Shown: positions 52,437 through 63,910 of the stretch, piece after piece
How positions within the stretch are numbered: the stretch's first letter is position 1
Layout of the letters: each line of letters begins with the position of its first letter
NCBI GenBank assembly: GCA_964558645.1
Contig: CAZLEV010000007.1
Span: 104,254-168,253, forward strand
DNA length: 64,000 nt
Reading direction: 5' to 3'
Source of the DNA: an uncultured archaeon
GTDB lineage: Archaea; Asgardarchaeota; Thorarchaeia; Thorarchaeales; Thorarchaeaceae
Notes under the pieces: generated by a model
Told to the model about the DNA's origin: nothing
The model's input: only the letters and a program-made list of their open reading frames with translations
The model's database searches: none
Made by a program: the position numbers and the translations under genes

Positions 52437-55190
52437 TTGACAATCGAGAAGGCTTCTGGCCCTAGCTCACAGACTGAACGAGAGGACGAAAAGACCCTGG
52501 CTGCACTCGTCATAGGTGGCGGCGTGGCAGGAATGCAGGCAGCACTTGATATCGCGGATCAAGGCTTCAAGACCTATTTGCTCGAGAAGTCCCCGTCCAT
52601 TGGGGGGCGAATGGCGGCAATTGACAAGACATTCCCGACGCTGGACTGCTCCGCATGCATTCTCACACCGCGTCTGAGTGACGTATCTCGTCATCCAAGA
52701 ATCGAGCTCCTCACGTATTCTGAGGTTCAGTCGATTCATGGTGAAGTGGGAGATTTTACAGTGCGAGTTAGGAGAAAAGCGAGGTATGTTGACGAAGACG
52801 CGTGTTCAGGATGCGGTGATTGCGTGTCGGTGTGTCCAGTAGAGCTCCCTAACGAGTTCGATGAATCTCTTGGATTCAGGAAAGCCATCTACACTCCATT
52901 TCCTCAAGCGACACCTAATGTCTACACCATCGACAAGAAAGGTGAGCCTGCATGCAGAGACACCTGTCCAGCCCGTGTCAATGCGCAAGGATTCATCACT
53001 ATGATGAAGAAGGGGGACTATGCTAGAGCTCTTGAGATTGTCAGAGACTCCATCCCGTTTCCTGGCGTCCTTGGCAGAGTCTGCATATCGTTCTGCGAGG
53101 GTGAGTGTGAGCGTGGTTATCTCGATGAGAGCATGAAAATACGGAACCTGCATAGGTTCCTTGCGGACTGGGAGCGATCACTGGATGTGGTGGAGCCAGT
53201 TGTGCCCAACATCGACAAAGAGGAGCAGGTTGCTGTTATCGGCTCTGGACCTGCGGGTATTAGCTGTGCATATCAGTTGGCGCGCAGGGGCTATCCAGTT
53301 ACCGTCTTTGAGAAGGAGCCGCTGCTTGGTGGTCTGCTAAGATATGCGATTCCAGAGTATCGACTGCCTCGCGACATACTCGATGAGGAGATACAGAGAG
53401 TCGTCGACCATGGTGTCAAGATGAGACCCAACACCCCAGTCGAGTCCATTGAAGACCTCAAGAAACGAGGATTCAAGGCCGTGTTCATCGCTAGTGGAAC
53501 TTGGGAATGCAATGAGATGGGGGTGAGAGGCGAGGACTCAGAGGGCGTTCTTCATTCCATGGAGTTTCTCAGAAAGGTAAACACTGGAGAACAGGTTGAC
53601 CTTGGAAGAAGGGTTGTGGTCATCGGAGGAGGAGATGCTGCAATAGACTCAGCCAGAGTTGCTGTTCGTCTGGGCGCTGAAGAGGTCACACTTGTCTATA
53701 GGCGGTCAGGTATAGAGATTCCTGCCATTCCAAGCGAGGTGGAAGATGCTAAAGAGGAAGGAGTCAAGTTCATGCTTCTGACCAATCCTACTGAATTCCT
53801 GTCATCAGATGGCAAACTGACTGGAATCAGATGCGTTAAGATGCGTCTTGGAGAACCTGACTACTCAGGCCGGAGAAGACCGATCCCAATTCAGAACTCT
53901 GACTTCACAATGGCAGTAGACACGGCCATCGTGGCAGTGGGCCAAAAGGCAGATATCCACGGTGTTCAGACCAATTGCGACTGCACGAAATGGGGCACTG
54001 TTACTGTCGATGAAGTCACGTTGCAGACCAGCGAACCTGGGGTATTTGCTGGAGGAGATATTGTCACAGGACCCCTCACAGCTGTGAAGGCTGTTGGTCA
54101 GGGGCGAGAGGCAGCCGAGTCTATCGATCGCTATCTAAGAGGAGTATCCCTTGAAGAGGGGAGAGCTGAACCTCTGCATCGGGTACAGTCCTATGAGGTC
54201 GATACAACTCACAAAGAACAGTCAAAGGGTGCTGTGATGCCGAAGCAGGGGTTAGCGTCGCGACGTAATAACTTCGCTGAGGTGGAACTAGGCTTCACTG
54301 AGGAAGTGGCCCGTCTTGAATCTGAACGCTGTCTTGGATGTGCCAATTGTTGCGAGTGCAAGCTCTGCGTGGATGCCTGCACGCGTGAGGCAATTGATCA
54401 CTCGATGAACGATGAGATACTTGACCTTGATGTCGGTGCCATTGTCTTGGCAACCGGTTACAGACTCTTCGATGTGTCACGATATCCGCAGTACGGCTAC
54501 GGCAAGTACCCCAATGTCATTCACGCCATGGAATACGAGCGTCTCATCAACGCGGCTGGACCCACCAAAGGGCATCTTGTTCGCCTTAGCGACGGCAAGA
54601 TTCCAGAGAATATTGGGTTCATTCAGTGTGTCGGGGCTCGTGATGTGAGTAAAGGTGTACCATACTGCTCACGTGTGTGCTGCATGTACGGGATTAAGAA
54701 TGCCGTGATGGCGAAAGAGCATCAACCAGAGTGCGAGGTCACCATGTACTATGCCGATATCCGGGCCTTCGGGAAGGGATTTGAGGAGTTCTACGAGATG
54801 GCTCGTACACGTTTCGGTGTGGACTTCGTCCGTGGTCGCGTGTCAGAAGTTAATGAGAACGAGGAGAACGGGAATCTGATTGTAAGAGTGGAGGATACTG
54901 AAAAAGAGGTTCTCCATAATGTCGAGCACGATTTGATTGTCCTGAGTCCGGGCATTCAACCGCCAGAGGGAATGAGCGATATGGTTGTGGAGCTGGGTAT
55001 GGATCTGGCAATTGATGGGTACATAGATGTGGCTGATCGGGTCATTACCCCAGTGGACACGAAGCTTGCTGGTGTGTTTGTGTGCGGATGTGCAGATGGG
55101 CCTAAGGACATTCCTGACTCAGTATCTGCCGGTAGTGCGGCAGCGATGAGAGCAACTATCATCCTTAACAAATATCAAGAGAAGAGTTAA
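52437..55190 (+). CDS. hdrA: HdrA-like flavoprotein with GltD/NfnB-type NAD(P)H module inserted in the ferredoxin domain (HdrL-like)
   Basis: GGGVAG, DKTFPTLDC, GSGPAG, GGGDAAID…YRRS, CSRVCC and GPKDIPDS. Confidence 0.85.
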   Translation: MTIEKASGPSSQTEREDEKTLAALVIGGGVAGMQAALDIADQGFKTYLLEKSPSIGGRMAAIDKTFPTLDCSACILTPRLSDVSRHPRIELLTYSEVQSIHGEVGDFTVRVRRKARYVDEDACSGCGDCVSVCPVELPNEFDESLGFRKAIYTPFPQATPNVYTIDKKGEPACRDTCPARVNAQGFITMMKKGDYARALEIVRDSIPFPGVLGRVCISFCEGECERGYLDESMKIRNLHRFLADWERSLDVVEPVVPNIDKEEQVAVIGSGPAGISCAYQLARRGYPVTVFEKEPLLGGLLRYAIPEYRLPRDILDEEIQRVVDHGVKMRPNTPVESIEDLKKRGFKAVFIASGTWECNEMGVRGEDSEGVLHSMEFLRKVNTGEQVDLGRRVVVIGGGDAAIDSARVAVRLGAEEVTLVYRRSGIEIPAIPSEVEDAKEEGVKFMLLTNPTEFLSSDGKLTGIRCVKMRLGEPDYSGRRRPIPIQNSDFTMAVDTAIVAVGQKADIHGVQTNCDCTKWGTVTVDEVTLQTSEPGVFAGGDIVTGPLTAVKAVGQGREAAESIDRYLRGVSLEEGRAEPLHRVQSYEVDTTHKEQSKGAVMPKQGLASRRNNFAEVELGFTEEVARLESERCLGCANCCECKLCVDACTREAIDHSMNDEILDLDVGAIVLATGYRLFDVSRYPQYGYGKYPNVIHAMEYERLINAAGPTKGHLVRLSDGKIPENIGFIQCVGARDVSKGVPYCSRVCCMYGIKNAVMAKEHQPECEVTMYYADIRAFGKGFEEFYEMARTRFGVDFVRGRVSEVNENEENGNLIVRVEDTEKEVLHNVEHDLIVLSPGIQPPEGMSDMVVELGMDLAIDGYIDVADRVITPVDTKLAGVFVCGCADGPKDIPDSVSAGSAAAMRATIILNKYQEKS

Positions 55191-55469: not shown

Positions 55470-55991
55470 ATGGTTGAAACAAAAGGTGAGCTGAAGCAAC
55501 CGTCTTTGCATCATCCGAGTTCAGATTTCTCGGAGGAGCTATCCAACGAACCCGGCGGGGAGGATATCACCAAGTGTATCCAGTGCGGTATGTGTACTGC
55601 AAGCTGTCTTGTAGCCAAGTACACAGACCGATATAGACCCCGAAGACTGATTCAGAAGATACTCCTGGGAAAACGCGAAGAAGTGTTGGACAGCGACCTA
55701 CCATGGTTGTGCATGACCTGCCGGCTATGTGAGGAACGATGTCAGGAAGGCGTGAGCCTGCCCGAGATCTTTAGCGCAGTGAGAAAGATAGCAGCAAGAG
55801 AAGGAAAGATTCCCAATGTATTCAAGAATACTGCAGGTATCGTTCTGAAGGACGGCTGGATGCTGAAGGAAGCATACAGTGACTTTGTTGAAGATGACCG
55901 TGATGACCTGGGCCTTGACACAGAGCTGAACTGGAATTGCGACTTCGTTCAGAGAGTGAAGGAGAAGTACTTCAAGGAGGATGTAGAGTAA
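55470..55991 (+). CDS. hdrC: Heterodisulfide reductase subunit C
   Basis: CIQCGMCTASC and WLCMTCRLCEERC. Confidence 0.9.
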   Translation: MVETKGELKQPSLHHPSSDFSEELSNEPGGEDITKCIQCGMCTASCLVAKYTDRYRPRRLIQKILLGKREEVLDSDLPWLCMTCRLCEERCQEGVSLPEIFSAVRKIAAREGKIPNVFKNTAGIVLKDGWMLKEAYSDFVEDDRDDLGLDTELNWNCDFVQRVKEKYFKEDVE

Positions 55992-56869
55992 TGAGAGAGT
56001 TCATGCTTTACACTGGCTGCACGACTCCAGTGCGGCTACCAGCATACGAAGCATCAGTGAGAGCTGTTCTTGAGAAGTTTGGCATTGAACTCACTACTAT
56101 GAAGGATGCAAATTGCTGTGGAGCTCAGTACGTTGAGTCTCTAAGCAGGCCAGCTTTTGCAGCACTTAGTGGTCGCATTCTTGCACTTGCAGAGCGAGAG
56201 GGTCTGGATATACTGGCGGTCTGTGGTGCTTGCTCAGGATCACTGAAGACAGTAAAACATGAGCTTGACTCGGACCGATATCTTCGTGCAGAAGTGAATG
56301 ACCTCCTGAAGGAGGAGGGTCTGGAGTACACCGGTAACATACGTGTCAAACATCTCCTGCAGATCTTCCAGGAGGATGTTGGTTACAATGCCATTGAAGA
56401 GGCCATCGTTCGACCCTACAATGGAATCAGGCTAGCGGCTCACTATGGGTGCCACGTAACAAGGCCGTATGAGATTGTTCAGGTTGACGACCCAGAGAAC
56501 CCTACAATCATCGATCGGATTATCAGAATAGCTGGTGGCACACCCGTAGACTATGTTGGAAAGACAAGGTGCTGCGGTGGGCCGATGCTTGCGGTTGACG
56601 AGTCTGTTGCGAATAATATCGGAATGGAGAAAATCAACAACCTTAGGGATGCTGGCGTGCAGGGTTTGGTCACGGCCTGTGTGTTCTGTGATATTCAGCT
56701 TACCCAAGTTCAGTTTGGCGAAGGAATGGAGCCGCAGAATAGAGTTCCCGTTCTCACGCTTCCCCAGTTTCTTGGACCTGCCATTGGGATTGACGTAGAC
56801 AGTCTTGGAACGTATCTCAACAAGATACCTCCAGATGATATCTTCGCATCGATGGCGGAGGCTAGATGA
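55991..56869 (+). CDS. hdrB: Heterodisulfide reductase subunit B
   Basis: YTGC, NCCG, HYGCH, RCCGG and ACVFC; ATG overlaps the hdrC TAA. Confidence 0.9.
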   Translation: MREFMLYTGCTTPVRLPAYEASVRAVLEKFGIELTTMKDANCCGAQYVESLSRPAFAALSGRILALAEREGLDILAVCGACSGSLKTVKHELDSDRYLRAEVNDLLKEEGLEYTGNIRVKHLLQIFQEDVGYNAIEEAIVRPYNGIRLAAHYGCHVTRPYEIVQVDDPENPTIIDRIIRIAGGTPVDYVGKTRCCGGPMLAVDESVANNIGMEKINNLRDAGVQGLVTACVFCDIQLTQVQFGEGMEPQNRVPVLTLPQFLGPAIGIDVDSLGTYLNKIPPDDIFASMAEAR

Positions 56870-58167
56870 TGTCAGACAAGAAACCCAATAACAGCGCATT
56901 AGTAGTCGGAGGTGGAGTTGCCGGAATGCAGGCAGCTCTGGATATCGCAAATCAAGGATACAAAGTCTATCTCATTGAGAAGTCACCTACCATCGGCGGT
57001 CGAATGGCTCAATTGGACAAGACATTTCCCACTCTTGATTGTTCAGCATGTATACTCACACCAAGACTGAGTGAGGTCTCGCGTCATCCCAATATCGAGC
57101 TGATTACGAACGCGGATCTGGAGGCCGTATCAGGGAAGATTGGGGATTTTAGAGTCACTGTAATCAAGCGCTCACGCTACGTAGATGAAGAGAAATGTGC
57201 TGGTTGTGGAGATTGTACGGCGGTATGTCCAGTTGAAGTCCCGAATGAGTTTGACCGCGGGCTCGGAATAAGAAAGGCAATCTATACCCCCTTTCCACAG
57301 GCTACGCCAAATGTGTACACGATAGATATGGAAAGCTGCATTCGATGCAAGCGGTGCATAAACGAGTGTGAAAGAGATGCTATCGATCTGGAAATGCAGG
57401 ACGAAAGACTAGATTTCAAAGTAGGCGCAATCGTGTTAGCAACAGGTTATGAAATGTTTGACGTCAGCCGCTATCCTCGTCTGGGTTATGCTAGGATTCC
57501 AGATGTTATTGAGGCCATGGAATATGAACGGCTGATAAACGCTGCAGGTCCAACGCATGGGCATCTCATCCGACTCAGCGATGGCAAGATTCCAAAATCC
57601 ATAGGGTTTGTCCAGTGCGTCGGAGCCAGAGATGTCGCAAAAGGGGTGCCTTACTGTTCACGCGTGTGCTGCATGTACGGGATCAAGAACGCCGTGATGG
57701 CCAAGGAACACCTTCCAGATGCTGAAGTAAACATATACTATGCCGACATCCGGGCCTTTGGAAAGGGTTTCGAGGAGTTCTACGAGATGGCCCGTACACG
57801 TTTCGGTGTCAACTTCATTCGGGGTCGGGTTGCAGAGGTCACGAGGACGAAGGAGGGTCGATTGGCAGTAAAGGTTGAGGATACACTTTCAGCGAAGCCT
57901 ATGGATGTTGAGCATGACCTTGTTGTTCTGAGTCCTGGCATCGTTCCTCCTGAGGACCTTCTTACAATGTCGAAGAAACTGGGCGTGTCTGTCCGTGATG
58001 ACGGATATGTCGACGTATCACACCATTACTTCGGTCCGGTCGACACAAAGATGCCCGGTATCTTTGTCTGTGGGTGTGCAGACGGCCCAAAGGACATTCC
58101 TGACTCGGTAACGGCTGGCAGTGCAGCTGCGATGAAAGCCACGATTATATTGGCTCAGGGAGGCTAG
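56866..58167 (+). CDS. hdrA: HdrA core subunit (FAD + inserted ferredoxin, lacking N- and C-terminal domains)
   Basis: DKTFPTLDC, two CxxCxxC motifs, CSRVCCMYGIK and GPKDIPDS. Confidence 0.88.
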   Translation: MMSDKKPNNSALVVGGGVAGMQAALDIANQGYKVYLIEKSPTIGGRMAQLDKTFPTLDCSACILTPRLSEVSRHPNIELITNADLEAVSGKIGDFRVTVIKRSRYVDEEKCAGCGDCTAVCPVEVPNEFDRGLGIRKAIYTPFPQATPNVYTIDMESCIRCKRCINECERDAIDLEMQDERLDFKVGAIVLATGYEMFDVSRYPRLGYARIPDVIEAMEYERLINAAGPTHGHLIRLSDGKIPKSIGFVQCVGARDVAKGVPYCSRVCCMYGIKNAVMAKEHLPDAEVNIYYADIRAFGKGFEEFYEMARTRFGVNFIRGRVAEVTRTKEGRLAVKVEDTLSAKPMDVEHDLVVLSPGIVPPEDLLTMSKKLGVSVRDDGYVDVSHHYFGPVDTKMPGIFVCGCADGPKDIPDSVTAGSAAAMKATIILAQGG

Positions 58168-58172
58168 TCAAT

Positions 58173-59948
58173 TTGACAGAAGCCAGTGAGAAAGTTAAGA
58201 CAAAAGAGAAGACAGAACCACGCATTGGAGTATTTGTCTGCCACTGCGGGCACAATATTGCTGGTGTGGTGGATGTGGAAGAGGTTGCAGAGAAGGCGAA
58301 GAGCCTACCTGGAGTGGTCTTCAGCACTCATGAGATGTTCATGTGTGCCGATGCGGGACAACAGCTCATAAAGGACAAGATAGAAGAGATGAACCTCAAC
58401 CGGGTCGTTGTTGCAAGCTGTTCTCCACGAATGCATGAACCAACCTTCAGACGTGTGGTTGAAGCTGCAGGACTGAATCGTTACCTGTTTGAACAGGTGA
58501 ATCTGAGAGAACACGTATCCTGGTGTCACATGCGACAGCCTGAAGCCGCCACTGAGAAGGCTTGGGACTTGGTTCGAATGTCCGTTGCACGGGCTCGCGA
58601 ACTAGAAAATCTCCCCATCAAGGAGGTTGACGTGACTCCGAGGGCTCTGGTAGTCGGCGGAGGCATCGCTGGGCTACGGGCTGCACTGGATATAGCTGAC
58701 CGTGGCTTCGAAGCCGTCCTTGTGGAGAAGGACGATGAGCTCGGTGGCCATGTAAAGAAATGGACTCATCTGTTTCCTGCTGACGAGTCGGGTGCGCAGG
58801 TCATCTCCCCCCTCATAAGGCATGTCGAGAAACACAAACTCATCGACGTGATGACCAGTAGCAAGGTTGCCGAATTCGACGGATACATCGGGAATTTCAC
58901 GGTGAAGATAAAGAACCTCAAGACAGACAAGATAAAGACGGTCGAGGTGGGCGCAGTGGTAGTTGCCACCGGATTCAAGCCGTTTGAACCAGAAGGGTAC
59001 TATGCCTATGGTCAGTCCGAAGACATAGTCACACTGGCTGAACTCCAGGAACTCCCCCCCAGAGCAGAATTGAGACGTCCTAGTGACGGAAGATTGGTGA
59101 AGAAGCTAGCGTTCGTCGGATGTGTTGGTTCGAGGGAGCCCGGCAAGAAGGGGCACGAGCACTGTTCCAGACATTGTTGTTCTGCAGTAGCGCAGGCATC
59201 TGCAGACTTGAAAGAGAGAGTTGACCAAGTACTCATTCTCTATCAGGATATCCGAACCTATGGTCGAGGTCACGAGGAGCTACATAGACTTGCATTGAGC
59301 AAGCATGTGATCTATTCGAAGTTTCCACGTGAAGAAAAACCAGAGGTCGATGTTGACGATGATGGGAATATCAAAGTCACCTGGAAGGATGTCTTATCAG
59401 GAGACAAACTTGAGTTCGATGCCGATATGCTCGTACTTGCAACTGCTATGATTCCCCCCGAAGATGTAGCAGAGACTGCGAGTCTTTTCAGCCTCACCAG
59501 AAGCGGTGATGGGTTCTTCAATCCGGAGCATATCAAACTGGCTCCACTTACGACTCACACTGCAGGAGTCATGATTGCAGGAGCGGCTCAGGCTGCAAAG
59601 AATGCATCTGAATCAGTCATTGATGCTAGTGGCGCCGCAGCAAAGGCTGTGGGTCTCATGGCCCGGGGAAAGGTGGAGATTGAGTCAACTGTTTCTCATG
59701 TTGTCTCTGATCTCTGCTCTGCATGTCACACATGTATCACCACTTGTCCATACGGTGCAATATCGATGGATGAAGAACACAACCCCCCTGTGGCCTTCGT
59801 AACAGAAGCGAAGTGTCACGGATGCGGTACGTGCGCTGCTGCTTGTCCCAGCAACGCAATCATCATGTACCATTCCACAGATAATCAGATCATGGCGATG
59901 ATCGAAGCGTATCTGTGTCCCAGCGATATCGAAGAAGGAGGTTCGTAG
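58173..59948 (+). CDS. hdrA: HdrA subunit with N-terminal and C-terminal ferredoxin domains but no inserted ferredoxin
   Basis: GVFVCHCGHNI, ASCSPRMHE, CSRHCC, CSACHTC and CHGCGTCAAACP. Confidence 0.88.
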   Translation: MTEASEKVKTKEKTEPRIGVFVCHCGHNIAGVVDVEEVAEKAKSLPGVVFSTHEMFMCADAGQQLIKDKIEEMNLNRVVVASCSPRMHEPTFRRVVEAAGLNRYLFEQVNLREHVSWCHMRQPEAATEKAWDLVRMSVARARELENLPIKEVDVTPRALVVGGGIAGLRAALDIADRGFEAVLVEKDDELGGHVKKWTHLFPADESGAQVISPLIRHVEKHKLIDVMTSSKVAEFDGYIGNFTVKIKNLKTDKIKTVEVGAVVVATGFKPFEPEGYYAYGQSEDIVTLAELQELPPRAELRRPSDGRLVKKLAFVGCVGSREPGKKGHEHCSRHCCSAVAQASADLKERVDQVLILYQDIRTYGRGHEELHRLALSKHVIYSKFPREEKPEVDVDDDGNIKVTWKDVLSGDKLEFDADMLVLATAMIPPEDVAETASLFSLTRSGDGFFNPEHIKLAPLTTHTAGVMIAGAAQAAKNASESVIDASGAAAKAVGLMARGKVEIESTVSHVVSDLCSACHTCITTCPYGAISMDEEHNPPVAFVTEAKCHGCGTCAAACPSNAIIMYHSTDNQIMAMIEAYLCPSDIEEGGS

Positions 59949-60392
59949 TTGACTCAGGCTAAGGCAAAGACCGAATCTGAACACGAGTGGACACCTCGCA
60001 TCGTAGCATACTGCTGCAACTGGTGTTCGTATGCAGGTGCCGACCTGGCTGGTACCAGTAGGATACAGTACCCACCCAACGCAAGAATAGTTCGTGTGAA
60101 CTGTACAGGTCGGATAAGTCCCGAGTTCATTCTGGCGGCTCTTGACATGGGCGCTGATGGCGTTCTGGTATCGGGGTGCCATCCGGGTGATTGTCACTAC
60201 ACAAGCGGCAATCTGAAGCTCAGGGCAAGATGGGCCCTGATGGAGCGAGCCATTGAACAGGCAGGTGTAGACACCCGGAGGATAAGACTACAGTGGGCTA
60301 GTGCATCAGAAGGACAGGTGTTTGCCGATGGGGTGGAGAAGCTGGTGGAACAGGTCAAAGAGGTTGGACCGATTCAGGAGGAATGGAAATGA
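59949..60392 (+). CDS. mvhD: [2Fe-2S] hydrogenase subunit D
   Basis: CCNWCSYAGAD, CTGR and GCHPGDCHY, all encoded by Cys codons. Confidence 0.93.
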   Translation: MTQAKAKTESEHEWTPRIVAYCCNWCSYAGADLAGTSRIQYPPNARIVRVNCTGRISPEFILAALDMGADGVLVSGCHPGDCHYTSGNLKLRARWALMERAIEQAGVDTRRIRLQWASASEGQVFADGVEKLVEQVKEVGPIQEEWK

Positions 60393-60631
60393 GTCTCTTT
60401 CAGAAGTACTTTGATCAGAAACGCGGAGAAATACGGAAACAAAGAAAGGCGATCAGCGAGGCTCTAGAAAGCGGACCAAAGACTATCAGTGCCATTGCCA
60501 AGATTACAGAGTTCCCCACTCAATTGATTCTCTGGAACCTCTTGGCAATGATGCGATGGAATGAGGTTGCGGTTTCTGGCGAGGAAGATGATGAGTTGGT
60601 CTACAAACTCTCGGAGGCATCAGAAGAGTGA
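60389..60631 (+). CDS. Small winged-helix-like protein inside the mvh operon
   Basis: ATGA/GTGA overlaps on both sides; ALESGPKTISAIAKIT HTH-like segment. Confidence 0.7.
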   Translation: MSLFQKYFDQKRGEIRKQRKAISEALESGPKTISAIAKITEFPTQLILWNLLAMMRWNEVAVSGEEDDELVYKLSEASEE

Positions 60632-61551
60632 CAGACAAGGTCTCAGTAGCATTGATGCAAGGTTCCTCTTGCTGGGGCTGCTTTCAGAGCCTTGTTGACA
60701 TCCATCTGCGTCTGGCAGAGGTCTTGCCTCTGCTTGACATCAAGTTTTGGGCTGCGGTTGCAGATTTCAAGCACAAGCACCTCGAGAGTTATCCTGACCA
60801 GTCTATAGATGTTGGTCTGTATGAAGGAGCTGCAAGGACAGAGGAGGACATTCATAATCTCAAGTTGATGCGAGAGAAATGCAAGACGCTGATATCTTTT
60901 GGTTCTTGTTCATGCTTCGGCGGTATACCCGGTCTTGCAAACTTCTCAGACATCGAAGAATGCTATGATGTCAAGTTCAGAAACAACAAGACTGTCCAGA
61001 ATGGCAAAGTACCCCATGAGAACGTTCCTCCCATAGCAGCGGTGATAAAGCCAAACAACCAGTATGTGGATTTTGACGTCTACTTACCCGGTTGTCCTCC
61101 AACTTCCGACTTGATTTATACTGCTCTTACCTCGCTCATCCAAGGCAAAGAGCTGGAATTGGACCCACACACAGTCTGCCACTATTGCGATCGTGACAAA
61201 CAGGAGACTCCAATTCCCCACGTCTTACGTCCCTTTGATGGAAATGCTGATCCAGATAGATGCCTTCTCGAACAGGGATACATCTGCATGGGCTCAGCCA
61301 CGTGGGGCCTCTGTGAGGGCCAGTGTGTGAACAAAGGCGCAACATGTCGCGGATGCTTTGGACCTCCTCCGCCCATCATGCAGGACCAGGGTGCCAACGG
61401 TATAGGAATGCTTGGTTCTTACGCACCGCTCGAACCAGATGAGATCACGAAGACGGTTAAGGATCCTCTTGGATTGTTCTGGAGATTCACTTACGCAACG
61501 AGTCATCTAGGAAGCATCCGTATCAAACGAGAGGAGGCTAAGCAACAATGA
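60628..61551 (+). CDS. mvhG: Group 3c [NiFe] hydrogenase small subunit
   Basis: SCWGC, GSCSCFGG, PGCPP and CLLEQGYICMG. Confidence 0.92.
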   Translation: MTDKVSVALMQGSSCWGCFQSLVDIHLRLAEVLPLLDIKFWAAVADFKHKHLESYPDQSIDVGLYEGAARTEEDIHNLKLMREKCKTLISFGSCSCFGGIPGLANFSDIEECYDVKFRNNKTVQNGKVPHENVPPIAAVIKPNNQYVDFDVYLPGCPPTSDLIYTALTSLIQGKELELDPHTVCHYCDRDKQETPIPHVLRPFDGNADPDRCLLEQGYICMGSATWGLCEGQCVNKGATCRGCFGPPPPIMQDQGANGIGMLGSYAPLEPDEITKTVKDPLGLFWRFTYATSHLGSIRIKREEAKQQ

Positions 61552-62864
61552 CCGATGAGCGAGTTGTCAAGATAGATCCAGTTACGCGTCTTGAAGGACA
61601 TGGGGCACTGACTCTGAAGATGGGAACTGATGGAAAGGTGAAAGACGTTCAGTTCAATGTGCAGAGTACTCGGTTCTTTGAGAAGTTCCTCGAAGGGCGA
61701 CCGATGGAAGAAGCCATCAGGATTGCGCCTAGAATCTGTGGTATCTGTCCCATTCCTCATCACCTCGCTTCCGTCAAGACAGTTGAGGATGCCTGGGATG
61801 TAACGCCACCCCCTGCAGCCATCAAGCTTAGAAGACTCCTGATAGAAGCAAAGCAGCTCTCATCTCACGCAATCCATTTCTATGCACTCGCGGCCCCCGA
61901 CTTCGTGTTTGGCCCATTTGCAGACCCCGCGGTAAGGAATGTCGCAGCTGTTCTGAAACATTTGCCTGATGTAGCAGTTCAGGCAATCAAGCTGATGCAG
62001 TTTGGCCAAGAGTTGTGTAGAACAATCGGAGCCAAGGCCATCCATCCCACGACAGCTATTCCTGGCGGAATGCTCTCCCCACTCAAGGAAGAGGAGCGTG
62101 ATCACTGGCTTGGCGAAGTGCCAGAGATGCTTGAGAACATCAACAAGACAGTCGACTTGGCCAAGACGGTTGTGAATGATTATCTTGATGTGATCACCAA
62201 GGTGGCTGTCACTCCGACATACTACATTGGTCTCACAAACGATGGCGTCTTGGACATATACGACGGCACCGTTCGGGTCATGGCCCCTGACGGTGAGATA
62301 GTCGCAGACTTTGAACCGCAGGATTACACAGACTATTACGGAGAACACATACCTGACCATTCCTATGCAACGCACATCTACTACAAACCCGCCGGATACC
62401 CCGAAGGGATCTGGAGGGCCAATACTCTCGCCCGCTGCAATGTTGCAGATAAGATGGCGACACCCCTGGCTCAGGCGGCTCTGGAGGAGATGCGTGAACT
62501 CGTTGGGCGTCCCTCTCATCATACTTTCGCCTACCATTACGCCCGGGTTGTTGAGATGGTTCAGGCTGCTGAATGGATCAAGACGCTTCTGGAGGACCCT
62601 GATATCGTCAGCACTGACGTAAAACTCGCTGATGTGGAGCCAAAGGCCGGCGAGGGTGTTGGCATCGTTGAGGCACCTCGTGGAACACTGTTACATAATT
62701 ACGAGTGCGATGAGGAGGGAATAATCACCAAGGCGAATCTCATCGTGGCGACAAACAATAATATCGCTGGCATCGAAAAGAGCCTCATGGATGCTGCGAA
62801 ACTGATCTTCGAGAAAGAGGGACACAAGGAACTAGACCTACCTGAACCCATGGTCAAGACATAG
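61548..62864 (+). CDS. mvhA: Group 3c [NiFe(Se)] hydrogenase large subunit lacking the C-terminal L2 motif
   Basis: RLEGH, RICGICP and EAPRG present; no DPCxxC before the stop. Confidence 0.92.
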   Translation: MTDERVVKIDPVTRLEGHGALTLKMGTDGKVKDVQFNVQSTRFFEKFLEGRPMEEAIRIAPRICGICPIPHHLASVKTVEDAWDVTPPPAAIKLRRLLIEAKQLSSHAIHFYALAAPDFVFGPFADPAVRNVAAVLKHLPDVAVQAIKLMQFGQELCRTIGAKAIHPTTAIPGGMLSPLKEEERDHWLGEVPEMLENINKTVDLAKTVVNDYLDVITKVAVTPTYYIGLTNDGVLDIYDGTVRVMAPDGEIVADFEPQDYTDYYGEHIPDHSYATHIYYKPAGYPEGIWRANTLARCNVADKMATPLAQAALEEMRELVGRPSHHTFAYHYARVVEMVQAAEWIKTLLEDPDIVSTDVKLADVEPKAGEGVGIVEAPRGTLLHNYECDEEGIITKANLIVATNNNIAGIEKSLMDAAKLIFEKEGHKELDLPEPMVKT

Positions 62865-62877
62865 GTGAACAATCAAG

Positions 62878-63030
62878 ATGACAGATGAAATAGATGAAGG
62901 CCTGCTCAACCTCCTTGAGATGGTTGTCAGGTGCTATGACTGCTGACTATCCTGCGGCGCTCATTTCGTCGTTGTGGACGATGAGGGTCGCGAGATTGTC
63001 CGAAAGGAGTTAGTGACTGGCGGCGGATGA
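62878..63030 (+). CDS. vhuU: VhuU-like selenopeptide MTDEIDEGLLNLLEMVVRCYDC(U)LSCGAHFVVVDDEGREIVRKELVTGGG
   Basis: AGGTGA SD and ATG 62878; TGA 62944-62946 falls at the Ni-ligand position of the L2 motif missing from MvhA. Confidence 0.9.
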
Positions 63031-63096
63031 AAGTCCGGCGTAAAGATGTGAGCCGGGTTGGACACGCCCCGCAAGGGCGCGTCGGTCGCACTCCTT
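63004..63096 (+). promoter_or_regulatory. SECIS-like structured RNA
   Basis: AUGAA…GGAC core, 8-bp AGUCCGGC/GCCGGGUU stem, AAA in the loop and a long closing helix. Confidence 0.7.
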
Positions 63097-63177: not shown

Positions 63178-63330
63178 ATGACCAGCTCGGTTCCTACCCA
63201 AGTGAAGCTCCGGAGGGACTTCGACCAGATACGAACAGGAATACGAGCAAGGCGATACACAGGGCACGAAACTCTATTGATGGGTCTCAGGCTTTCATCG
63301 CTGGCTCTTCGCATTGCTGGTGAGAGATAG
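63178..63330 (+). CDS. Small basic protein upstream of the nucleotidyltransferase (antitoxin-like)
   Basis: Open 50-aa frame MTSSVPTQ…RIAGER ending 1 nt before the next ATG; too short for the ORF track. Confidence 0.5.
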   Translation: MTSSVPTQVKLRRDFDQIRTGIRARRYTGHETLLMGLRLSSLALRIAGER

Positions 63331-63331
63331 A

Positions 63332-63910
63332 ATGGACGAGTTTCGAAACGCCCTGGAGTTGGTTTCTGGATATCTTGACAGCGAAGGAATCGAATACGTG
63401 ATTGTTGGGGGGGTGGCGGTAATGTTTCATGGTGTTCCTCGAACTACAGTGGATATCGACATTATTCTGGACATTGGCGAAGATGAGATCAAGCCATTTG
63501 TTGAATTCCTGACCTCGCACGGCTTCGTTGCTTCTGTCGAAGATATGGAAGCAGCACTCAGAGAGGGCTCACTTTGCACAGTTTTCTTTAAAGATAGCCT
63601 GCTTAGACTAGATATCCAGGGTGTGAACACTGAGTTCGACAAGTTGACCCTTGAACGCGCAATCCGGGTGGATTTGTTTGGTTCGAACATACGACTGGGT
63701 TCGGTGGAGGACACTCTCATTAACAAGATTCTCTTTCAGGGAGAACAGGACCTGCGAGATGCACTAGGCATCTTCTCACGGAAGACAGGACAACTGGACC
63801 TCGAATACATTGATTCAACATGTAGAATGCTGGATATCCTCCAGGACTGGAAACGTTTCTCGACCGATGCGATAGCGAAAATCGACGCTATGGATGAAGG
63901 CGAAACGTAG
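63332..63910 (+). CDS. Nucleotidyltransferase (DUF6036/AbiEii-like)
   Basis: YVIVGGVA…PRTTVDID and K…QDLRD motifs. Confidence 0.8.
   Translation: MDEFRNALELVSGYLDSEGIEYVIVGGVAVMFHGVPRTTVDIDIILDIGEDEIKPFVEFLTSHGFVASVEDMEAALREGSLCTVFFKDSLLRLDIQGVNTEFDKLTLERAIRVDLFGSNIRLGSVEDTLINKILFQGEQDLRDALGIFSRKTGQLDLEYIDSTCRMLDILQDWKRFSTDAIAKIDAMDEGET

Follow-up and report, generated by a model that had tools for sequence, protein, structure and literature searches.

A separate, UGA-containing vhuU gene very probably completes the split large subunit of an Hdr-associated [NiFeSe] hydrogenase in a Thorarchaeia genome

The DNA analyzed in this work (referred to as the window) is a stretch of 64,000 nucleotides from a metagenome-assembled genome (MAG) of the Thorarchaeia, which comprises 3.63 Mb in 37 contigs, with a completeness of 92.8% and a contamination of 6.3%. 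The 3′ end of the window is also the end of its contig (C7, 168253 bases). The genes hdrC, hdrB, two hdrA, mvhD, vhuG, vhuA and vhuU were all found on the same strand across positions 55470–63030, and vhuU closes the cluster (Table 1). The genes for the large, small and delta hydrogenase subunits adjoin hdrABC-like genes, and by this criterion the cluster corresponds to a group 3c [NiFe] hydrogenase (Mvh/Vhu) together with a heterodisulfide reductase. Among the NCBIfam families, mvhD, vhuG, vhuA and vhuU were matched best by VhuD, VhuG, VhuA and VhuU, respectively, with scores under the methanogen-based equivalog cut-offs in all four cases. When the cluster was read with TGA as selenocysteine (Sec, U), no in-frame TGA was detected in hdrB, in the two hdrA genes, in mvhD, in vhuG or in vhuA, and the MvhD motifs (CCNWC and GCHPGDC) use Cys codons throughout. 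An earlier interpretation made from the letters of this DNA (the sequence-only reading) had proposed that hdrA and mvhD are Cys-only and that VhuU is the sole Sec-dependent part of the complex, and this holds for the operon of the window.

Table 1. Position of the genes and sequence features of the Hdr-Vhu cluster in the window, and of the selenocysteine-decoding components on other contigs (C4, C12 and C13) of the same MAG.
Feature	Position	Strand	Description and basis
hdrC-like ferredoxin subunit	55470–55991	+	Pfam Fer4_8/Fer4_17; directly upstream of hdrB
hdrB-like, CCG domains	55937–56869	+	PF02754; TIGR03288 (CoB-CoM heterodisulfide reductase subunit B), 227.8 bits, below the cut-off of 345
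hdrA-like, FAD domain and inserted ferredoxin only	56866–58167	+	NF040770 (HdrA2), positions 139–563
hdrA, with N-terminal domain, FAD domain and C-terminal ferredoxin	58173–59948	+	NF040770, 560 bits
mvhD/vhuD, all-Cys form	59949–60392	+	PF02662 (FlpD), 4.7e-50; NF045873 (VhuD)
82-aa ORF, no known family	60383–60631	+	Lies between mvhD and vhuG, with an overlap of a few bases on either side; no Pfam or NCBIfam match
vhuG/mvhG, hydrogenase small subunit	60628–61551	+	PF01058; NF045875 (VhuG), 225 bits
vhuA, with L1 motif RICGIC (Cys64, Cys67) and without C-terminal Ni motif	61548–62864	+	438 aa; NF041785 and PDB match
Shine-Dalgarno-like GGTGA (putative function)	62866–62870	+	7 nt ahead of the vhuU ATG; sequence reading
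vhuU	62878–63030	+	Supplies Sec23-x-x-Cys26-x-x-His29 and a 21-aa tail; best NCBIfam family NF041786 (VhuU)
C-Y-D-C stretch	62932–62943	+	Extra Cys19 (TGC) and Cys22 (TGC) around Tyr-Asp; direct reading
UGA selenocysteine codon (residue 23)	62944–62946	+	First Ni-ligand position
Eukaryote-like (Asgard type I) SECIS	63027–63062	+	Alignment, covariation and genome-wide model search
tRNA-Sec	C4:168980–169066		ARAGORN SeC(tca), 59.8 bits, cut-off 47
PSTK/KTI12	C4:167839–168567		118.2 bits, cut-off 22; about 400 nt from tRNA-Sec
SepSecS	C13:5127–6254		398.9 bits
SelB/EFSec-like	C13:3583–4608		291 bits; just upstream of SepSecS
SelD	C12:110681–111607		404.8 bits

Several further features of this region were observed. 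The two hdrA genes within 56866–59948 (+) encode complementary partial HdrA proteins, and a third HdrA-type gene lies at 52437–55190 (+), encoding a protein of 917 aa in which an HdrA-like N-terminus is fused to a GltD/NfnB-like NAD(P)H oxidoreductase (Fer4_20, Pyr_redox_2). When the 82-aa ORF located between mvhD and vhuG was used as tblastn query, the copy of the window was the sole match. Directly past the hairpin that follows vhuU, near the contig end, a nucleotidyltransferase of the DUF6036/DUF2204 type (AbiEii-like) is encoded at 63314–63910 (+).

The large subunit gene vhuA encodes a protein ending in ...LPEPMVKT, with no D-P-C-x-x-C-x-x-H motif. The best PDB match was the split VhuA of a methanogen (9sfi_g, 442 bits), to which residues 7–421 aligned over positions 4–417 of 418, and the NCBIfam model NF041785 was likewise covered from position 4 to 417 of 418, with a score of 499 bits that lies below the cut-off of 800. 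Therefore, the claim that the large subunit stops before its C-terminal Ni motif was borne out, since VhuA ends where the solved methanogen VhuA ends. On the fused MvhA of 9sw2_F, VhuA covers residues 5–414 and the peptide encoded by vhuU covers residues 423–450 of the same chain. Relatives of VhuA were found in MAGs of Candidatus Thorarchaeota (79–99% identity) and of Promethearchaeota/Lokiarchaeia (about 60%). The two Cys of the L1 motif, Cys64 and Cys67, were the only invariant Cys among 84 split VhuA homologues.

The vhuU ORF starts with an ATG 13 nt past the TAG of vhuA and comprises 50 codons followed by a TGA stop. When its internal TGA is read as U, the peptide contains ...E-M-V-V-R-C-Y-D-C-U-L-S-C-G-A-H followed by 21 residues, with Cys19 at 62932–62934, Cys22 at 62941–62943, Cys26 at 62953–62955 and His29 at 62962–62964. 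The peptide matches 9sfi_M, the 27-aa partner chain of the methanogen VhuA, and the TGA aligns with the X that marks the Sec position in R-A-Y-D-P-X-Y-S-C-A-A-H of that chain; the proposal of an ORF located 13 nt after the large subunit with TGA at the first Ni-ligating Cys was thus exact. The tail of 21 aa behind the His, also pointed out in the sequence-only reading, was counted in frame and has the same length in 64 of 76 relatives. NF041786 (VhuU) was by far the best NCBIfam family (E 5.4e-15, 54.9 bits), with a score that does not reach the equivalog cut-off of 70; this shortfall was assumed to reflect divergence from the methanogen VhuU proteins, the presumed base of that model. No Pfam match was obtained for the 50-aa peptide or for its Cys homologue, and longer, fused relatives of the peptide were searched for but not found, which is weak evidence.

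Gene callers miss vhuU, and one public record (P0013) holds only a 32-aa fragment ending in ...RCYDC. In this respect vhuU had rightly been described as a hidden selenoprotein, although the arrangement itself is already in print. The public fragment reproduces the reading of the gene callers, in which the TGA is a true stop and the ORF is what remains, in decay, of the 3′ end of a formerly fused mvhA, so that the hydrogenase would be inactive or would have another C-terminus. The conservation of the codon across the phylum speaks against this. In 251 Asgard genomes sampled phylum-wide, VhuU-like sequences were detected in 111 genomes, with a total of 137 matches, of which 134 contained exactly one in-frame TGA, at the same codon, and three contained none. 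This comparison had been suggested as a check in the sequence-only reading. At about 75 loci the small ORF immediately follows a VhuA homologue and has its TGA at the same codon, and among 76 distinct homologous genes the Sec codon was TGA in 74 and a Cys codon in the other two. With such conservation, an assembly error at the TGA of the window is unlikely. The conservation of the peptide also persists beyond the TGA. Against 37 distinct 50-codon homologues, 322 codon differences after the TGA fell in the third position versus 184 and 94 in the other two, and this bias indicates that the region behind the TGA is under coding constraint. Taken together with the single-TGA ORF found throughout the phylum, the third-position bias means that vhuU is no chance ORF. 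The true-stop explanation is also opposed by the same split in the solved methanogen enzyme (PDB 9sfi, chains g and M), by a co-varying SECIS after the gene and by the full Sec machinery of the genome (both described below), and its probability is considered practically negligible.

The hairpin at the vhuU 3′ end begins with AUGA (63027–63030), which contains the stop codon UGA of vhuU, and continues with a stem formed by 63031–63039 and 63052–63060, a loop at 63040–63051 and a GA at 63061–63062. The nine positions of the stem include one A.G mismatch and two G.U pairs, the loop of 12 nt (GUAAAGAUGUGA) starts with GUAAA, and the element sits about 80 nt downstream of the Sec UGA. No SECIS family of Rfam matched the hairpin, either at the gathering threshold or with E up to 10, so the SECIS was established by alignment and covariation instead. 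In an alignment of 51 homologous vhuU 3′ ends, ten stem pairs were paired in 85.4% of the cells, and all ten had changed on both sides. The covariation reached 0.63, compared with 0.33 in shuffled alignments (none of 500 shuffles reached the observed value) and with 0.21 or less when the partner was shifted by one to three columns. The covariance model derived from this alignment gave exactly two matches in the 3.6-Mb genome, both of them at vhuU 3′ ends and their stop codons, and this vhuU-derived model revealed no further selenoprotein genes in the genome. The type I elements defined by Huang 2024 (PMC11227280) have a core GA_[G/A]A, an upper stem of 7–15 bp with no more than two mismatches and an apical loop of 8–20 nt. 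The core, the stem and the loop of the vhuU hairpin all lie within these dimensions, and compensatory changes and the tie to selenoprotein genes were observed as well.

Additionally, the genome was searched for the Sec machinery, as the sequence-only reading had recommended. tRNA-Sec, PSTK, SepSecS, a SelB-like factor and SelD were all found, each over its cut-off (Table 1); all five are located off the contig of the window and are linked to it through the binning of the MAG. A second vhuD-vhuG-vhuA-vhuU operon was detected on contig C4 (141559–144391), about 24 kb from the genes for tRNA-Sec and PSTK, and in this operon mvhD ends 37 nt before mvhG. The VhuU peptides of the two operons are identical, whereas the VhuA proteins are only 71% identical; at the DNA level the identity was 90–94% for vhuU and just 57–78% per 100 nt for vhuA. 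This contrast would be explained either by a strong constraint on the mini-gene or by gene conversion.

These results also bear on whether the UGA might be read as Cys or Trp through a near-cognate or suppressor tRNA and not as Sec. Cys-type paralogues with TGY at this place exist (3 of the 137 matches; P0006–P0012 in public protein collections), so a thiolate works at the position. However, the genome keeps tRNA-Sec(UCA), PSTK, SepSecS, an EFSec-like factor and SelD, the SECIS is attached to exactly vhuU and its paralogue, and the operon showed no further read-through of TGA. Such a decoding is regarded as very improbable. The missed NCBIfam cut-offs, the absence of D-P-U from the motif, the lack of an Rfam match and the linkage of the machinery by binning were counted against the vhuU reading. 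With these points considered, it is held with high confidence that 62878–63030 is vhuU, which encodes separately the Sec-containing C-terminal part of the large subunit in a group 3c, Mvh/Vhu-type, Hdr-associated [NiFeSe] hydrogenase, as judged from the comparative sequence evidence.

The hdrA paralogues located elsewhere in the genome contained no internal TGA in real frames. The catalytic position of SelD, which published surveys describe as the commonest Asgard selenoprotein, is occupied in this genome by Cys (G-L-G-C-A-C-K) and not by Sec. SelD forms the C-terminal part of a fusion with a NifS-like cysteine desulfurase domain, encoded in a single frame of 749 aa (C12, about 109490–111740, +). 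Since VhuU is the sole UGA gene of the window operon and SelD is a Cys form, the Sec machinery of this genome serves very few genes, namely both copies of vhuU and at least one further candidate selenoprotein.

A looser scan of the genome with an AUGA-stem-GA pattern gave about 100 matches, nearly all of them noise. It recovered an ORF of 267 aa on contig C5 (87853–88656, +) with one in-frame TGA in the context E-C-M-S-U-G-K-G (CxxU), and its stop codon is formed by the UGA of a SECIS that has an AUGA core, a stem of nine perfect base pairs and the loop GUAAAGCACUGCA. Of the 18 Thorarchaeia-family genomes searched, 15 contained homologues with exactly one TGA, down to 34% identity. This ORF matched no Pfam or NCBIfam family and is absent from the families listed by Huang 2024 (PMC11227280). 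Its AlphaFold2 model (pLDDT 62) resembles the beta-supersandwich domain of GH94 phosphorylases. Another ORF of 96 codons, on contig C9 (46798–47085, −), encodes a membrane helix at its N-terminus and has a single TGA in frame, and its end overlaps a SECIS-like hairpin with AUGA, the stem AGCCAUCAC/GUGGUGGUU and the loop GUAAAGCCCUGCA. Only 3 of 25 relatives yielded a homologue with one TGA, which makes it a weak candidate selenoprotein.

By analogy with the Vhu hydrogenases of Methanococcus and following the published work on Asgard SECIS elements, the EFSec-like factor carrying Sec-tRNA-Sec would decode the UGA at 62944 under the guidance of the SECIS. Translation would then terminate at the UGA within the SECIS core, this terminal codon probably being too near the SECIS for recoding. 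VhuU would join VhuA in such a way that Sec23 and Cys26, together with Cys64 and Cys67, surround the Ni-Fe site. After the insertion of the metal, a HycI-type endopeptidase may cut the 21-aa tail behind His29; a HycI-family protease gene is present in the genome at C20:1099–1446 and is the candidate for this step. The physiological partner of the enzyme would be an Hdr-type electron-bifurcating module.

A Sec-containing VhuU and a split hydrogenase are already known: they were published for Lokiarchaeota in 2016 and catalogued across the Asgard archaea, including Thorarchaeia, in 2024. The lokiarchaeotal VhuU has about 50 aa and one Sec, the AUGA of the lokiSECIS is the stop codon of VhuU.1, and a minimal distance spares the terminal UGA from recoding (Mariotti 2016; PMC4989117). 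The Asgard selenoproteome was described by Huang 2024 (PMC11227280), who reported that the loop starts with G[U/G]AAA in most frhA/vhuU genes of Thorarchaeia. The vhuU of the window resembles these Asgard genes (Loki VhuU.1 and the Thorarchaeia FrhA/MvhA/VhuU class) in its size of about 50 aa, its single Sec and its place downstream of vhuA. Its hairpin shares with the Asgard type I eSECIS the AUGA...GA core, the 9-bp stem, the A-rich loop of 11–12 nt and the use of AUGA as stop, as well as the loop start GUAAA known from Thorarchaeia. It differs from the Loki system in that hdrA, vhuD and SelD are all Cys forms here, whereas the hdrA/vhuD pairs of Loki have several Sec. The gene is therefore regarded as a member of the published Asgard VhuU class, with nothing substantive that sets it apart.

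With the VhuU/VhuA pair of the Methanococcales (NF041786/NF041785; 9sfi chains M and g), the thorarchaeal proteins share the place of the split, the Sec-x-x-Cys-x-x-His motif, the neighboring VhuG and VhuD and the association with Hdr. They differ in the motif (R-C-Y-D-C-U here versus R-A-Y-D-P-U) and in the SECIS, which is of the eukaryote-like kink-turn type here and of the GAA_A type in the methanogens. Moreover, the host is not a methanogen, and in Asgard the split extends to small subunits of the Cys type. The periplasmic [NiFeSe] hydrogenases of Desulfovibrio and Desulfomicrobium (2wpn, 1cc1) likewise have Sec for the first Cys of the C-terminal Ni motif, but they belong to group 1, with a fused large subunit, a bacterial SECIS located within the coding sequence and D-P-U, and VhuA matched them over the N-terminal ~180 residues only (about 100 bits). 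The C-terminal G-C-U-G of thioredoxin reductase shares a vicinal Cys-Sec with VhuU; its fold and role are unrelated, so the likeness is a functional analogy only.

The two Cys that flank Tyr-Asp next to the Sec remain the point of interest. The solved homologues, which for the comparison with D-P-U comprise one methanogen VhuU chain (9sfi_M) and several fused proteins (MvhA/FrhA), read R-A-Y-D-P-C/U, and the VhuU of the window has Cys for this Ala and Cys for this Pro. A census of 76 distinct small-subunit genes from seven Asgard families gave RCYDCU in 61 genes, RCFDCU in five, RAYDCU in four, RSYDCU in one, RCYDPU in two, RSYDNU in one and Cys-type motifs (RCYDCC, RAYDCC) in two, the variant forms belonging to other Asgard families. 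Cys was found at the −1 position in 73 of the 76 genes and at the first position in 69. The C-Y-D-C-U stretch had been called unusual, and it is genuinely so when compared with the D-P-U of the methanogen chain; within Asgard, however, RC[YF]DCU is the norm (66/76), with D-P-U in just two genes. The possibility, raised in the same reading, that the extra Cys positions are TGA in relatives was also checked, and their codons were TGC or TGT and never TGA in the 76 genes.

Both extra Cys vary independently of each other, and RSYDNU has neither of them and yet keeps the Sec codon and the SECIS intact. This independent variation makes an indispensable role unlikely. Cys-type split small subunits with RCYDCC also occur in public protein collections (the records P0006–P0012 mentioned above), and the retention of D-C-C in these paralogues means that the extra Cys do not depend on Sec. 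In the Cys-type subunits with RCYDCC or RAYDCC (L123:1807–1965, from contig C63 of the Thorarchaeia genome G014, and contig C227 of genome G083, from another Asgard family), Phe replaces the His of C-x-x-H (L-S-C-S-A-F). This His is the usual endopeptidase site, and its replacement in two families suggests a distinct paralogue whose C-terminal processing may be different or absent. A Cys of VhuA that co-occurs with D-C-U as a putative disulfide or selenenylsulfide partner was also looked for, and among the 84 split VhuA proteins only Cys64 and Cys67 of L1 were invariant.

A functional role of the extra Cys was weighed in this context. Cys22 and Sec23 might form a selenenylsulfide reversibly, in which Cys19 may or may not act as the resolving thiol (C-x-x-C-U), or Cys22 might act as an extra chalcogen near the Ni. 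The frequency of both Cys across the seven families, their retention in the RCYDCC paralogues and the presence of Ala and Pro in their place in methanogen VhuU and in fused MvhA/FrhA are in favor of such a role. The vicinal Cys-Sec of thioredoxin reductase forms a selenenylsulfide, and oxidized [NiFeSe] hydrogenases show Se-S species; both facts were counted on the same side. Against it, the motifs R[AS]YDCU, RCYDPU and RSYDNU, with intact Sec codon and SECIS, indicate that neither Cys is indispensable and that they do not form an obligate pair, and VhuA has no conserved partner Cys beyond the L1 ligands. A functional role in this sense is considered unlikely. Still less probable is a functional innovation of the active site by the Cys-Sec dyad or by C-x-x-C-U-x-x-C as a whole, for example a reversible selenenylsulfide switch in which the selenolate that ligates Ni would be parked under oxidative stress or in the course of maturation.

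Most likely, Cys19 and Cys22 represent the form of the motif that is typical of the Asgard lineage and are tolerated second-sphere substitutions, which may have a protective redox role. As far as the compared sequences indicate, neither Cys is a further Sec site and the two are not bound to occur together, and the vicinal Cys-Sec pair may have a redox or protective role. In the literature searched, which included Mariotti 2016 and Huang 2024, no mention of the extra Cys was found. What is new here is that the extra Cys vary independently across the Asgard families, that they are never Sec codons and that VhuA has no conserved partner for them.

The enzyme encoded by this Hdr-Vhu cluster is very probably complete and selenium-dependent, and a metabolic reconstruction in which vhuA is taken for a truncated gene would wrongly call the hydrogenase broken. 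The remaining scientific interest lies in the phylum-wide presence of Cys for a near-universal Pro and for the preceding Ala, beside a Ni-ligating Sec. If the extra Cys were functional, the Asgard [NiFeSe] hydrogenases would carry their own redox switch or protection against oxygen, and if the selenenylsulfide switch were true, the Asgard Vhu would be a chemically distinct [NiFeSe] hydrogenase. A function of these Cys would also bear on how Asgard archaea tune or protect their hydrogenase, and the H2 metabolism of these organisms is central to syntrophy models of eukaryogenesis.
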